Of a stretch of DNA of 64,000 nucleotides, positions 55,404-63,411 are shown piece after piece. Numbering within the stretch: position 1 is the stretch's first letter; the number at the start of each line of letters is the position of its first letter. This stretch comes from an uncultured delta proteobacterium. GTDB taxonomy: Bacteria; Desulfobacterota; Desulfobacteria; Desulfobacterales; JAFDCJ01. The notes beneath the pieces were generated by a model, which did not search any database, was not told where the DNA came from, and saw only the letters and a list, made by a program, of their open reading frames with translations. The position numbers and the translations under genes were made by a program. The DNA lies in contig CAVYNY010000017.1 in the NCBI GenBank assembly GCA_963769935.1, forward strand, positions 160,036 to 224,035. Direction: 5' to 3'.

Positions 55404-56270
55404 ATGAGCAACGGTCAGATTTTCATCAGCTATCGCCGCGATGACTCTGCAGGCTATGCCAGGGCCCTCTATGATCGACTCGTTCAGCATTTCACCAAAG
55501 AGCGCGTTTTCATGGATGTGGATGCAATCGAACCTGGGCTTCCGTTTGACGAAGCCATCAAACGTGCTTTAGATCAATGCGAGGTGCTGCTGGTAGTGAT
55601 CGGCAGGCACTGGTTGGAAACCCGGCAAGGCAAGGGGCCGCGCATCAACGATCCGCAGGATTTTGTACGCCTCGAAATTGCGGCTGCGCTATCGCGCAAC
55701 ATTCGTGTGGTCCCGGTGCTGCTCGACGGCGCCGGCATGCCAAGCGAAGAAGAATTGCCCGAAGTGCTTCGTGCGCTGTCACGGCGAAACGCGCTTGAGA
55801 TCAGAAACAGCCGCTTTGACGCGGATAGCGAGACCCTGATAAGGGCGGTCGGAAAAGCATTGGGCGAATCTGAAAATGCAGTCCAAAGCAACTCGGGTTT
55901 GTCGACTCAAAACCGGCGGCCTGACATTAACGGCCGGTGGGAGGCCGATGTCACTTACGATTGGCCGAATGCAAGATATGTTGAGAAGTTCGACTTGCGC
56001 GGCGAAGAAGACGAAGTGTTTGGGACCGCTTCATTTCTTGGCCGAAAGAGAGGTATTCTTGAGGGAAGTATAAGCAGGGACGGGCTCCGGTTTATTATCA
56101 GAACTCAGGAGTATCTTGGTGCGGATTCGAACCCAAGGGATGCGATACATCGCTACCGCGGGAAGCTACTGGGAAACGAGATCAAATTCAGCCTGCAGAC
56201 CGAGGGCGGCTATTCGGAGCATATACCCATTGAGTTCATTGCGAAAAAAGTGCCTGACAGCGGACAATAA
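55404..56270 (+). CDS. TIR domain protein with C-terminal beta-rich domain
   Basis: IFISYRRDDS, VFMDVDAIEPG, DFVRLEIAAAL, VVPVLL. Confidence 0.9.
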   Translation: MSNGQIFISYRRDDSAGYARALYDRLVQHFTKERVFMDVDAIEPGLPFDEAIKRALDQCEVLLVVIGRHWLETRQGKGPRINDPQDFVRLEIAAALSRNIRVVPVLLDGAGMPSEEELPEVLRALSRRNALEIRNSRFDADSETLIRAVGKALGESENAVQSNSGLSTQNRRPDINGRWEADVTYDWPNARYVEKFDLRGEEDEVFGTASFLGRKRGILEGSISRDGLRFIIRTQEYLGADSNPRDAIHRYRGKLLGNEIKFSLQTEGGYSEHIPIEFIAKKVPDSGQ

Positions 56271-56694
56271 GCGATAGGCCGAACCAGGTTAAAAATTGGA
56301 AAAAGCCGCTCTCACGCAAAAGGGACGAACGACCAATCCCAAAGGTGATGACACGGATTTTCATGAGTAAAATTTCGGATTTACACCAACATGATATTTC
56401 GGTATAATCAAACCAAATTCTACAATATTCTCACCCGAAAAATTTAAAACCGCAGCGCGGTTTTACATATAAAATAAACAGCCTCAGATGCTAATGCTTC
56501 TATCTATACCTAAGTGCTCTTATTCATAATTACGGTGACGTATTGCAGTGATATTTTTTCACCACGGACACAGAGGACACGGTCCGCCGGAGATGAATTT
56601 CATTTCATTGGCCCTTGAGAGTCCCGCTGAACGGGATGCAAGCAAAGACAAATGAAAAACAAACAGACTATGGCAGAAAATAAAAGGGGGAGGA

Positions 56695-57657
56695 ATGAAG
56701 ATAGCCTTACTCGTTGACGGGGACAACATATCGCCTAAATACATGCCGGCAATTATGAGCGAAATACAGAAAAGGGGAACTTTGGCAATTAAGAGGATCT
56801 ATGGCGATTGGACAACTACCAGTATGCATGGATGGCAGGATTGCCTCAAGCAGTTTTGCATCCGACCGATCCAGCAGTTTCGGTATGGTGAGAATGCAAC
56901 GGATGGTGCCATTATAATGGACGCCATGGAAGTGCTGTTAACAACCGATCGAATTGATTGTTTTTGTATCGTTTCCAGCGACAGCGACTTTTACAGTCTC
57001 TGTCTGAGGATCAGAGAACACGGAAAAGCCGTCATCGGTATCGGCAACAAAAAAACCAAGGATGTTCTGATAAGGGCATGTGATGAATTTGTCCGTCTGG
57101 AAAATCTCAGTTTGGAAGAACAGAAAAGCACCAAAGATAGGGATGAAGAGCTATCGGATCCCGAGACCCTGCTTATCAGAGCTTACACTGAATGCTCCGG
57201 TGACGAAGAATGGGTATCTTTTGCCAGTTTGGGATCTATCGCCAGAATGATCGACCCAAGTTTCGATCCCAGAACATACAACCATTTTAATTTCAGATCT
57301 TTGCTAAAAAGCCTGGATATATTCGAGATAAGAAAAGATCAGTGCCTGCCTCCGAATTACTTTTGTCGCCTGAAAGAAAAACCGGAGGCTGAGAGGATTA
57401 AGAAACAAGAGGGCATGATAAAAAATATGCTCTCATGGTATGGCTTTATCCAGGGTCATGATGGTGATTACTATTTTACGCTGTCGAACATCAGCGGGCA
57501 CCAAAAGAGTTTACGGATTCAAAAGGGAATGAAGGTATTATTTGACGTGATTAAGCCGCCTGACCCGTCAGCTTCAGATACTTCTGAAAAAAATGGAAAA
57601 GCCGGCAATGTTGAATTTATAGATGTTGCCAGGCAAAATGCTGCAATCGCAGAATAA
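56695..57657 (+). CDS. NYN domain protein with OST-HTH/LOTUS and cold-shock-like domains
   Basis: ALLVDGDN, RIYGDW, VSSDSDF; PSFDPRTY; YGFI...DYYF. Confidence 0.88.
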   Translation: MKIALLVDGDNISPKYMPAIMSEIQKRGTLAIKRIYGDWTTTSMHGWQDCLKQFCIRPIQQFRYGENATDGAIIMDAMEVLLTTDRIDCFCIVSSDSDFYSLCLRIREHGKAVIGIGNKKTKDVLIRACDEFVRLENLSLEEQKSTKDRDEELSDPETLLIRAYTECSGDEEWVSFASLGSIARMIDPSFDPRTYNHFNFRSLLKSLDIFEIRKDQCLPPNYFCRLKEKPEAERIKKQEGMIKNMLSWYGFIQGHDGDYYFTLSNISGHQKSLRIQKGMKVLFDVIKPPDPSASDTSEKNGKAGNVEFIDVARQNAAIAE

Positions 57658-57759: not shown

Positions 57760-58272
57760 TCATGAAAGACGGTCGAGGGGACTTAAAACAGCGGAGATGT
57801 CATTTTCCATGACATGTGTGTAGATCTCGGTGGTTTTAACCGTAAAGCATTTTGGCCATCAGAAGATGAGTACCTCCAATGTAGGAGATCACCCGCTGAA
57901 CCTTCGCTTGGGTCATCACAACAGGTGGCCGGGAATGCTTCTTGGCCCTGACCGGTTCAAGTTGATCTTCAATCGGCTGGTCGAGCACACGGCGGTACAA
58001 GAATACGATTGCGTTCAAGGCCTGTCGCTGCGTAGAGGCGGAAACCCTGCCTTGAGTGCCCAGATGGCTTAAAAAGGCGTCGATCTGGGTTTTCCCCATC
58101 TGAGCAGGGTGGGTCTTGCCTCCGTGAACTTGATGTATCGAAGTATCCAATCGCAGTAAGTCTGTTCAGTGCGATATGCGTAATGGTGGTAGCGCAGGAC
58201 CTCACGGACCTGGTCCAACAGTTTCAATTTCGGGTTGGGTTTGAATTTTGGCTTGTGATTGGTCTCCATCAT
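57760..58272 (-). pseudogene. intI: Integron integrase with a large internal deletion and a frameshift
   Basis: KLLDQVREVLRYHHYAYRTEQTYCDWI, VSASTQRQALNAIVFLY, LMAKMLYG joined directly to VKTTEIYTHVM...SPLDRL*. Confidence 0.9.
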
Positions 58273-58505
58273 GGCGTATATTGAATATAAAAACATGGAA
58301 AAAGCAAGATAAATTTTTCCATGTTTTTGTCCACTGTAACAAAATAGGTGGAAAATTTTCTATTCTATAAAGGCAATACCTGGAAAATTTTCCATATATT
58401 ACTCTGATAGGCGGACCGCGAGCTGAAGCTCGCTTGGCCTGCGGCCATCCGCCTATCGGGCTGCGAGATGAGCCAATTGAGCTTAATAGTCGTCGCTCGC
58501 GCTCC

Positions 58506-59015: not shown

Positions 59016-59120
59016 TCCCAACATGCCAGTGGAGCAGACGGCGTGAAGATCGCGGTTCATCGTAGGGACCATGCAAGATTGACAGTAATTGGGGCCGCTG
59101 CTCACCAGCGGACGTTATAT
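59016..59120 (+). other. attC site
   Basis: TCCCAAC...GTGGAGCAG / CTGCTCAC...GTTATAT directly after the stop codon. Confidence 0.82.
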
Positions 59121-60211: not shown

Positions 60212-60319
60212 ATATAACAAGACGGATGCACCTGACAGGAAAAACTTGCGGGGTTTACCGTAAAATGTATTTGGGCCTCGAAGGCAGTGCCGACTGCAGG
60301 TGATCCGCAGACGTTATGC
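60212..60319 (+). other. attC site
   Basis: ATATAAC (exact reverse complement of the cassette start GTTATAT)...ATGCACCTG / CAGGTGAT...GTTATGC. Confidence 0.85.
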
Positions 60320-60437
60320 CAACTATAGCCGGATAATATTGTGAGTATTTTTTATATGGTAAAAAGGGATACACCTAAACTTATTTGGGCGATCATTATT
60401 TTTTATCTGAAGGACAAGGGGGTCGCATCTAAATTAT

Positions 60438-62698
60438 GTACGAGGTCGCGAGACCATTATCTAGTAACCTGAAAGGAGGTTATCATATCAGTTGCCCTTA
60501 TGGATATGAAGGCAGAGGGCGGGTTCGCGTGGTAACACGCGGGCTGAACTTGCCCCGACACGGTACCGAGACGGCTCGCAGGATATGCGGGTTTTACCCA
60601 GTCAGGGGTGCCGGCCAAAACCGCAGGCCGTAGCATGACGCGAATGGTGCAGCCTCGTAAGATGTGATCGGACGGCTATAGCTGGGAGAGTCCGATTGAG
60701 GGATAAACCCTGCATCGCAGGGATACCCGCCGATCCTCTATAATTTGGGAGAAGGCCAGAGCTACCAGGGAAGCAAAGGGTATGCGCACCTGGTAGGGAC
60801 CCGGGGTAAGGCCAACGGCATGCGGTGACAGATAATGGAGGAAAGACCTGAGATCCCAGCGTCTCCGCAGGTCTCCGCCTGCGGTAAGCCTGTATCAAGT
60901 CGGGTGAAACCGGCAAGATGGAGGTGATGGGCGTAGGGAAGTCGGAGTGGCCTGGAAGTGATGACGGGCAGGACAACATAACCTGTCTCTGAGCGTGGGG
61001 CCATACTTCGACCGCGTTTAGGGTGTGAGTTGAAATGCGGAACAGTGGATAGATTTGAGGGTGAGGATAAGGTGCGGGTTTACGGGGACCCCGCTTTAAC
61101 AAAACCCAACCGGCAGTCGTTGGGGAACGGTGCGACAACCGGGCCAAGAACTCGAACTGTCCCGAATCATCATCGGTTTAAACACCAGTTGCATTTCTAT
61201 CTGGTAACAGTAAGAAGGCATGAGTGCTCAAGGAGCTATGAACGTGCGGAATAAAGTTTCTGACTTGCAGTCTAAACTGTCCCATGCAGCGAAGCAGTCG
61301 CTGGATAGGAGATTCGGGGCTCTTTACGATAAGATCTATCGTGAAGATGTTGTTTTGGAGGCCTGGAAGCGCGTCAAGGCCAACAAGGGTGCACCTGGAG
61401 TCGATCGGCAGGATTTTGAATACATCGAGGATGTAATTGGTGTGGATCAATTTCTGGCGGAAGTCCGCGAGCAATTAAAAAGCAAGCGGTACCGGCCGCA
61501 GCCAGTGCTGCGGTGCTATATCGACAAACCGGGCAAACCTGAGAAAAGGCCGCTTGGGGTTCCGGTTATTTTTGACCGCGTTTGCCAGATGGCGACCAAA
61601 CTGGTAATCGAGCCGATATTTGAGGCCAATTTTTTGGATTGTTCTCACGGATTTCGTCCGGGGCGAAGCGCCCATGACGCGATCCGTATAATAGAACGCA
61701 GGATTACCTTCAAAGGTCAGCGCATCGTTTTTGACGCCGATATAACGGGATTTTTCGACAATATTCGCCAGGATATTCTACTGGAACTGGTTGAACGCCG
61801 CATCGCTGATGCTCGTGTTTTAAAGTTAATTCGCATGTGGTTGGAAGCCGGGGTCATGGAAGAGGGCAAATATATCGAAACGAACGGGCTGGGAACTCCG
61901 CAAGGTGGTGTAATTTCACCGTTGCTGAGCAATATCTATCTACACTCGTTTGACAAAATGTTCCAGATGTCGGGAATTCCAGGAACACTGGTAAGATATG
62001 CGGATGATTTTGTTATCTTGCTGTGGCGTAACGGAAAGCAGGTTAAAAAGCAGGTGGAGCAGATGCTGGGACGTCTTGGCTTGAAGCTGCACCCGGATAA
62101 AACGCGTATGGTTAAAGCGAAAGACGGGTTTGATTTTCTCGGCGTGCATTTGCGTCTGTGTCCGGTGCGCAAGAAGAACTCGAAATTAAAGCAGTTCTGC
62201 GCATTATGGCCTTCAGAGCGTTCGATGGGGCGCATCAGGCAGCGAGTGAAGGCAAGTCATCGGGCGCCGCTATAGTCTGTCGCTGGAGGAGTTGATAAAA
62301 GAGCTGACACCGGTAATACGGGGTTGGAACAATTATCACAAAGCGACAAGACCGGTGCTCAAAGGGCTTCGCAAACTCAATGCCTTTGTCCGCGAACGGC
62401 TGCGAATATTCCTGAAGCGGAAGTACAGTGATCGATCGAGGGGCACTTGGAGAGTCCACAACAATTTAGTTGTTCGACTGGGATTATACCAGTTCGGTTA
62501 GTCACTGTAATTCAACGACAACGGTTACTGATAAACACATGGGGAAGGTCGTCGGTGAGCCGTACCGGGGAAAACCCGACGTCCGGTTCGACGAGGGGAC
62601 TAAGGGAAGGAAGGTAGGGCTGTCGGACTGAGGCCTGCCGGGAAATCGGCAGAGGTGCCGCCGACGCCTATAGCCACTGCACCAAGGTTCTACTCTAC
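60438..62698 (+). mobile_element. Group II intron
   Basis: 5' GTACG (GUGYG variant) then AGGTC pairing with GACCT at 60845-60849; domain V GAGCCGTACCGGGGAAAACCCGACGTCCGGTTC from 62557; 3' end CTACTCTAC; RT ORF inside; EBS-IBS complementarity. Confidence 0.88.
61220..62501 (+). CDS. ltrA: Group II intron reverse transcriptase/maturase (frameshift near 62255; no endonuclease domain)
   Basis: KGAPGVD, RPLGVP, GFRPGRSAHDA, GTPQGGVISPLLSNIYL, RYADD, GFDFLG; domain X (PVIRGWNNY) in the next frame. Confidence 0.92.
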
Positions 62699-62704
62699 AA
62701 AGTG

Positions 62705-62733
62705 TTGACAAGGCCATGCCGTTAAGATAGCGT
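62705..62733 (+). promoter_or_regulatory. Possible sigma70 promoter for the transposase
   Basis: TTGACA-17 nt-TAGCGT, 50 nt before the ATG. Confidence 0.5.
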
Positions 62734-62783
62734 GCGAAAAACAAAAGAAGATGCTTTTTAGCGAAACAAAAAGGTATTTTTGA

Positions 62784-63233
62784 ATGGCGCGGCCGTTAAG
62801 AATAGAATTTCCGGGTGCTTTCTATCACGTGATGAATCGCGGAAACACGGGAATGAATATATATAGGAGCGAGCGGGACCGGGAAAAGTTCTTGGAATAT
62901 GTCGGCGAGGCGGTGAAACGATACGGAATCAAGGTGCATACCTATTGCCTGATGACCACGCATTATCACTTTTTGATAGAAACTCCCCATGCGAACCTGA
63001 GTCAGGCGATCAAATGGATCAACGTCGGTTATTCGGTGTATTTCAATCGAAAACGAAGACGCTTCGGTCATCTGTTCCAAGGGCGCTTCAAAGCCGTGCT
63101 GGTGGACGCGGATGAATATTTAAAGCACCTGTCCCGATATATCCATCTGAATCCGGTGCGGTCGAGGATGGTTGAACATTGCAGAGACTATCCATGGAGC
63201 AGTTACCGGGCTTTAAGCGGCTATAGAATATAG
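62784..63233 (+). CDS. RAYT-like Y1 (HUH) transposase, probably C-terminally truncated
   Basis: MARPLRIEFPGAFYHVMNRG, YCLMTTHYH (HUH), GHLFQGRFK, YIHLNPVR. Confidence 0.88.
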   Translation: MARPLRIEFPGAFYHVMNRGNTGMNIYRSERDREKFLEYVGEAVKRYGIKVHTYCLMTTHYHFLIETPHANLSQAIKWINVGYSVYFNRKRRRFGHLFQGRFKAVLVDADEYLKHLSRYIHLNPVRSRMVEHCRDYPWSSYRALSGYRI

Positions 63234-63282
63234 GGGAATATAGGGGACGGGTATTGATATATTGATTAAGCAGCAACAAATC

Positions 63283-63411
63283 ACCCAACCAAAATGATTG
63301 AGCAGATGCCTAAAATCAGATTGTATTAAATCTGTTGCAATCTTTGGAATTGTATTTTTTATTTGAACTATTACGCGATTAATCCGGCCCTGCTCATCAT
63401 CGTCGTTATGT
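63283..63411 (+). other. attC site
   Basis: ACCCAAC...ATTGAGCAG / CTGCTCAT...GTTATGT. Confidence 0.75.

Follow-up and report, generated by a model that had tools for sequence, protein, structure and literature searches.

The locus described here raises the question of how a group II intron came to lie inside a short repeat ahead of a Y1 HUH transposase gene, within the remains of an integron, and what was recognized as its target. The window (the whole 64,000-nucleotide stretch of an uncultured deltaproteobacterial genome that was analyzed) contains the intron with the following parts:

60438..62698, plus strand: group II intron of 2261 nt, 5' GTACG and 3' CTCTAC; boundaries taken from genomic copies, Rfam and empty alleles
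60660..60666, plus strand: EBS2 core (AGAUGUG), pairing with exon positions -8 to -14 with covariation; mostly single-stranded in the consensus fold
60740..60745, plus strand: EBS1 (AUAAUU), terminal loop of the domain Id hairpin
61220..62501, plus strand: intron-encoded reverse transcriptase (RT)/maturase lacking an endonuclease domain; in the window copy a frameshift occurs near 62250
62555..62698, plus strand: domain V with an AGC triad and a 5-nt loop (GAAAA), followed by a long domain VI; from an Rfam match

The limits proposed in the initial annotation (60438 with GTACG, 62698 with CTCTAC) were borne out by genomic copies that share the same base, by the Rfam match and by intron-free joints, and every sequence string quoted there was found where it had been placed. 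Five copies of the intron, 98-99% identical, are present in this genome (G000), three of them full-length and two truncated at the 3' end. All five start at a common base after an exon ending TC(G/A)CATCT(A/T)A(A)(T/C)TAT, so that one insertion base is found within different flanks. Intron-free joints connecting 60437 with 62699/62700 were detected, with short sides of 21-29 nt, in DNA contigs of all four public runs examined, one of which (X1) may be the source sample itself, and an intact intron-free element with the same end exists in a genome of the same genus (locus L247). Because genomic copies and empty alleles agree, the 5' boundary was regarded as fixed, with the window intron reading GUACG as against the group II consensus GUGYG and the relatives L181, L197 and L095 reading GUGCG or GUGUG. 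These copies and empty alleles point indirectly to an intron that would splice and be mobile. Among 400 genomes sampled from the phylum it was detected in one other genome, and the viral contigs and plasmid DNA searched yielded no match. Derivatives without an open reading frame, internally deleted but retaining both ends or domain VI, were observed at L187, L189, L193 and L198/L289.

Domain V carries the catalytic triad and domain VI ends in AC, as is characteristic of group II introns. Rfam model RF00029 (Intron_gpII) matched 62555-62698 with 31 bits (E 0.002), which is below its gathering score of 40, and Rfam at gathering thresholds returned no match in the window. The encoded protein matched the profiles RVT_1, GIIM and TIGR04416 (340 bits) and comprises both RT and maturase. 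In two other genomic copies its reading frame is uninterrupted and encodes 426 aa without an endonuclease domain; the frameshift of the window copy, like the truncation of the Y1 gene detailed below, was absent from the initial annotation. The combination of a missing endonuclease (En), both EBS1 and EBS2, a 5-nt domain V loop and a long domain VI corresponds to class F sensu lato (IIF), the latter two being described as IIF traits (PMC3753933; here and below, cited papers are drawn on in excerpt). The initial annotation had suggested a phylogenetic placement of the RT. A quick tree was calculated with references from Tables S1 and S2 of PMC3552965, which include none for g4, for basal F or labelled C or E; in it the intron falls into a clade of its own with a support of 99, which groups loosely (support 84) with the g2 and g3 references Ni.ha.I1 and B.th.I3 of class F sensu lato and is separated from those of g1 and class D. 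An RT-X protein without En, EBS1 plus EBS2, a 5-nt domain V loop and a long domain VI are common to this intron and class F sensu lato (g2-g4; Ni.ha.I1, B.th.I3, Ge.ur.I1; PMC3552965; PMC3753933), whereas identity to Ni.ha.I1 and B.th.I3 is only 33-40%, the clade is separate and the 2261-nt intron compares with their 1911 and 1970 nt. The intron is classified as an endonuclease-less, class F-like group II intron and not as an IIC-attC intron. Other, unrelated group II-type RTs, 33-42% identical, are encoded elsewhere in the genome (C13:147-1424, C14:146782-147660, C9, C10 and C22).

The exons on both sides of the intron, and what follows them, are listed next:

60418..60437, plus strand: left terminal inverted repeat (TIR) of TIRYT family A, outer 20 nt, containing IBS2 (60424-60430) and IBS1 (60432-60437); matches the TIRs of L247
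62699..62706, plus strand: inner 8 nt of the same family-A left TIR (3' exon)
62705..62733, plus strand: predicted sigma70-type promoter of the Y1 gene (TTGACA, 17 nt, TAGCGT)
62784..63233, plus strand: TIRYT Y1 HUH gene, truncated, 149 aa
63243..63267, plus strand: TIR belonging to another TIRYT family (B), to which the truncated Y1 gene is joined

The insertion point thus lies 20 nt into a 28-bp left TIR and 6 nt ahead of the predicted -35 box, in agreement with the initial placement of the exon joint just upstream of the Y1 promoter, which is a predicted one. The nature of the target was established with the intact Y1 relative at L247, a protein of 323 aa that is 97% identical over the first 99 aa. 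It combines a Y1_Tnp core with a C-terminal Bac_DnaA_C helix-turn-helix, and its element has a 28-bp inverted repeat at either end, of which the right copy overlaps with the stop codon; 28-bp TIRs also bound an element on contig C11. A Y1 HUH core with a C-terminal helix-turn-helix in a protein of about 320 aa, together with a TIR start of the GGGGWSAS type, from which family A departs at one motif position, is found in TIRYT elements (TnpA-Y1 subclass 2.1). TIRYTs or TIRtrons are described as lacking REPs and having GGGGWSAS-type TIRs (PMC3733652; PMC6006769). The likeness to the published elements extends to the Y1 core with Bac_DnaA_C, the length, the GGGG-type TIR start and dimeric mini TIRs; the difference is that the window TIR reads GGGGTCGC instead of strict GGGGWSAS. 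The target is the 28-bp TIR of such an element. Of the earlier proposal of a RAYT-like HUH end motif, the end of a Y1 HUH element has stood and the RAYT label has not. A RAYT or REPtron gene would encode a short protein and be flanked by palindromic REP hairpins; this assignment was rejected, as the two ends here form an inverted pair and the protein, where intact, is long. The truncated Y1 protein of the window scored 69 bits against NF047646, for which the cut-off is 80. The available text of PMC3733652 does not contain the word 'intron' or describe a group II intron in TIRs.

Pairing between the intron and this repeat was analyzed in the intron and its relatives. The pairing loop described initially as a 7-nt EBS1 (ATAATTT, 60740-60746) was retained but is best taken as 6 nt (60740-60745), since exon position -7 is T in two other copies. 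Similarly, the proposed 10-nt EBS2 (60660-60669) held for about 7 nt (60660-60666): exon positions -15 to -17 display no two-sided change, and the intron bases facing them, the final ATC, pair within a domain I stem, for which reason the 10-bp version was discarded. The fold check assigned EBS1 to the hairpin of domain Id, where it lies in the terminal loop, and left the EBS2 core mostly single-stranded in the consensus fold. Across seven aligned sequences 87.5% of EBS-IBS cells were paired, compared with 64% after shuffling (the observed level was reached in 0/500 shuffles) and 29-45% in slid controls, and both sides had changed in 12 of 16 pairs. Permutation of the EBS-target match, from which L198, L211 and L213 were left out (all three are included in the junction scoring below), reached the observed value in 0/20000 cases for EBS2 (10 variants) and 7/20000 for EBS1 (8 variants). 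Mean column identity among the intron relatives is 88%, and changes are concentrated in the two guide loops. Two relatives, L176 and L205, insert 5 nt further into the TIR, and both loops of L176 fit the shifted site; pairing is poor in L095 and L181. The outer TIR core (-15 to -19) is retained in most variants without any co-varying exon-intron pairing, and this conservation in the absence of an RNA partner hints that the core may be read by protein.

The end motif had been called possibly multicopy, and this genome contains 17 TIR sites of family A and 27 of family B. Occupancy of family A follows the match to EBS1: introns occupy 3/3 sites with the perfect IBS1 AATTAT, 1/2 with AACTAT, 0/1 with AATTGT and 0/11 with AAATAT/C. 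A wider pairing scan returned one empty non-TIR site with a perfect IBS1. TIRYT coding sequence was located within 400 nt of 7 of 16 classifiable motif sites as compared with 2 of 300 random stretches, so that the proposed association of the motif with Y1 genes is far above background. Solo TIR-like ends without a nearby Y1 gene account for 7/16 motif sites (five other genomes), and a doublet class of sites, having a background of 15% (44/300), counts as weak evidence. Of the two related motifs named initially, the one at 63241 proved to be the TIR of family B with its 27 copies, and the one at 60361 has no second copy when up to 3 mismatches are allowed and could at best be a degenerate TIR. 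Copies of the TIRYT element in this genome have different outer flanks, which is suggestive of past transposition. Dense islands of TIRs from several TIRYT families together with attC-like sites are located at C11:176000-206000 and C15:128000-148000. Truncated introns and Y1 genes often break off at the outer boundary of another TIR or close to it (window 63224-63243; L208, L196, L205, L211 and L181), as if adjacent deletions had been caused by TIRYT ends.

Relatives in other genomes were used to examine whether homologous introns occupy the same kind of end. At least 120 RT clusters at 81-99% identity were obtained, and the matches listed in the collection scans are mostly relatives of 40-50% identity. 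Genome searches and collection scans yielded 24 5' junctions of close relatives, or 23 without L184 (the same locus as L209), five from this genome and 18 from elsewhere. For scoring, a library was assembled from 20 TIRYT loci, which contributed 40 ends, and no more than 0.4% of 1500 AT-rich random sites score 27 or higher against it; the library stems from the same host order and partly from the same genomes, and the genomes, being related, do not count as independent. Twelve of the 23 junctions scored at least 27, five were borderline (a level reached by 2-5% of random sites) and six failed; among the 18 from outside this genome, eight scored at least 27. Homologous introns thus reside mostly in the same kind of end, with 12/23 strong and 5/23 weak TIR matches. 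The target TIRs of the relatives differ in sequence, and the intron loops differ correspondingly. At four loci (the window copy, C11:465022, L008 and L177) the intron is immediately followed by a TIRYT gene, and mini TIR doublets host the intron on C13 and at L187. Distant relatives with a candidate start, whose 5' ends are unmapped in this control, reached a score of 27 at 0/50 loci, and a TIRYT match was found at 1/78 distant loci versus 8/31 close loci.

The six non-TIR junctions include a different repeat and one attC. The variant at L093, L195 and L202 targets a TGATATC-containing motif, which has 14 copies in genome G399, mostly in an unrelated repeat; a repeat of about 75 nt that lies between genes, carries GATATC motifs and has no annotation was observed in G399 (C1) and at L298, L300-L302 and L305-L308, and its core motif is the target of one intron variant. 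L181 is not accounted for by targeting of TIRYT ends. A sister intron in a Sedimenticola MAG (L026, start at about 1116; 66% RT identity) is inserted into an attC, in the top strand of its core site, where EBS2 pairs over 8 nt; it precedes a cassette that is HicB/HicA-like by eye and has the strand opposite to that of IIC-attC introns. At L076:5460-6053 the end of a distant relative of the intron is immediately followed by a Y1-type gene that belongs to a different subclass.

The integron that surrounds the TIRYT end was delimited by a home-made fold scan for attC-like sites and by a profile match:

57836..58296, minus strand: integron integrase remnant, frameshifted and truncated (TIGR02249, E 4e-27)
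59016..59120, plus strand: attC-like site after a DUF2750 cassette
60212..60319, plus strand: attC-like site upstream of the intron
63283..63411, plus strand: attC-like site downstream of the intron, within a unit of TIR-B and attC that is present in several copies

An attC array with co-oriented cassettes (three attC-like sites) is accompanied by an integrase remnant and not by a functional IntI. The intron is separated by 118 nt from the nearest attC-like site, in line with the distance of about 120 nt noted initially, and the nest of intron, HUH element and cassette proposed there is real and recurrent: 4/5 intron copies have at least two attC-like sites within 6 kb, compared with 0-2 (mean 0.5) in 15 random 14-kb stretches, and the same home-made scan detected none within 6 kb of the C13 copy. 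This nesting likely comes via the location of the TIRs, as TIRYT ends cluster in cassette arrays, and not via recognition of attC. A unit of about 170 bp in which a family-B TIR is fused to one attC occurs in five places (window 63230-63411, C10:16248, C11:196484, C13:571943 and C38:121320), and its recurrence suggests a role of TIRYT ends in moving or duplicating parts of cassette arrays. Beside the integrase remnant, 55404-57657 encodes a TIR-domain protein and an NYN/OST-HTH protein, which are possibly defence-related.

Taken together, we regard it as probable that the intron spreads by En-independent retrohoming guided by EBS1 and EBS2, in a lineage that has repeatedly switched its target from one TIRYT end to another. 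Direct support is given by the boundaries, the five same-site copies, the empty alleles, the identity of the TIR and the EBS-IBS covariation. The central idea of the initial annotation, an intron lineage homing to a multicopy element-end motif, is thereby supported as a preference that is not absolute, 6/23 junctions being non-TIR. None of the refuting conditions set in that annotation applied, namely homologues in unrelated targets, a motif without enrichment next to Y1 genes, or a 5' boundary at another position. The window copy likely arrived 20 nt inside the TIR by retrohoming, with EBS1 and EBS2 predicted to base-pair with the repeat, and relatives would likely switch TIR families through loop mutations. 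By analogy with other En-less introns, read-through transcription and splicing would be followed by reverse splicing into transiently single-stranded DNA; the window copy, with its frameshifted RT, would need protein supplied in trans by an intact copy. TIRs would be a beneficial site, as they are multicopy and non-coding, face both ways and spread with the element, and the insertion appears to spare the downstream predicted Y1 promoter and gene.

Several other explanations were weighed against this reading. A class C intron guided by attC or by a hairpin would fit the position within a cassette array and the 118-nt distance to an attC-like site, but is refuted and retains practically no probability: class C and IIC-attC introns have no EBS2, a CGC triad and insertion into the attC bottom strand, whereas this intron has a co-varying EBS2, a 6-nt EBS1 and an AGC triad, runs on the same strand as the cassettes and sits outside attC, and the C13 copy is the one with no attC-like site nearby. 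The initial annotation had come to the same view of the window intron; the integron-associated introns it gave as background are class IIC types at attC, from which this intron indeed differs, and IIB-type integron introns are already in print (PMC7923331). The likeness to both is a group II intron inside a cassette array, and the difference from IIC-attC introns is an insertion outside attC that is sequence-guided rather than hairpin-guided (PMC7923331). It is very improbable that a single insertion was copied by movement of the host element or by recombination. As a general cause this is refuted, because 5' exons differ in the C13, C11:193917 and C15 copies, the C13 3' exon differs too, and relatives reside in different TIR families with matching loops. 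It may apply to the window and C11:465022 copies, which could represent a single insertion event: their TIRYT flanks are 98% identical and they share an A at +1, a position at which T is found in most relatives, but pairwise differences among the copies are mosaic and do not set this pair apart.

Hijacking of the element, in which single-stranded DNA or a primer for the En-less intron would become exposed through binding or nicking of the TIR by the TIRYT protein, has a precedent in relaxases cited in PMC7306698 and is compatible with HUH Y1 enzymes working on single-stranded DNA (PMC6006769). We consider it unlikely, since occupancy in this genome tracks the IBS1 match alone and introns are also found in mini or solo TIRs without a nearby gene. 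Less improbable, though still rather doubtful, is a repeat generalist shaped by survivor bias, which overlaps with the preferred reading: the intron would retarget freely and persist at any abundant harmless repeat, TIRYT ends being merely the commonest and not specifically recognized. The variants on a different multicopy motif and on attC argue for it, as do the abundance of TIRYT ends (17 and 27 sites of two families in this genome) and the EBS divergence already known (PMC2882425). Against it stand the outer TIR core, kept in most variants without pairing covariation, and the near-fixed distance from this core at which TIR-targeting variants sit. An extension of the preferred retrohoming explanation is put forward tentatively, with the balance somewhat against it: the clade may be a specialist parasite of TIRYTs in which a fixed determinant at the TIR core (protein contact or TIRYT-made single-stranded DNA) is combined with two mutating RNA guides that chase diverging TIR families. 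It would ride the HUH element through integron arrays, splitting and perhaps disabling its ends, and the attC sister would mark an origin among cassette-array repeats.

The principle of introns residing in mobile-element ends, with divergence of their EBS sequences, is known (PMC2882425; PMC7306698; PMC12584367; PMC8643678), which caps the surprise of the present finding. RmInt2 of Sinorhizobium meliloti homes into the inverted repeats of ISRm17 (PMC4615759) and, as a class D intron, shares the En-less, EBS-IBS-guided homing into inverted repeats of a mobile element. It represents one intron in one IS, in contrast to a different class, an HUH-Y1 TIRYT host and several EBS variants for different TIR families here, where only perfectly or near-perfectly matching ends are occupied and right-hand TIRs are not. 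The introns of Thermosynechococcus elongatus likewise combine natural EBS divergence with insertion into other mobile elements but proliferated within one genome, and the abstract names no TIRYT host (PMC2882425). In a literature search that covered mostly papers outside subscription journals, no paper tying group II introns to TIRYT or RAYT ends and no lineage-wide tracking of TIRYT ends was found. The relatives share one scaffold and form a series in which the target has changed naturally, which is useful for deriving the rules of target recognition in the little-studied class F. The intron-marked ends in turn provide a handle on the little-studied TIRYTs and can show if a split TIR still works and if the element carries a 2.3 kb cargo.
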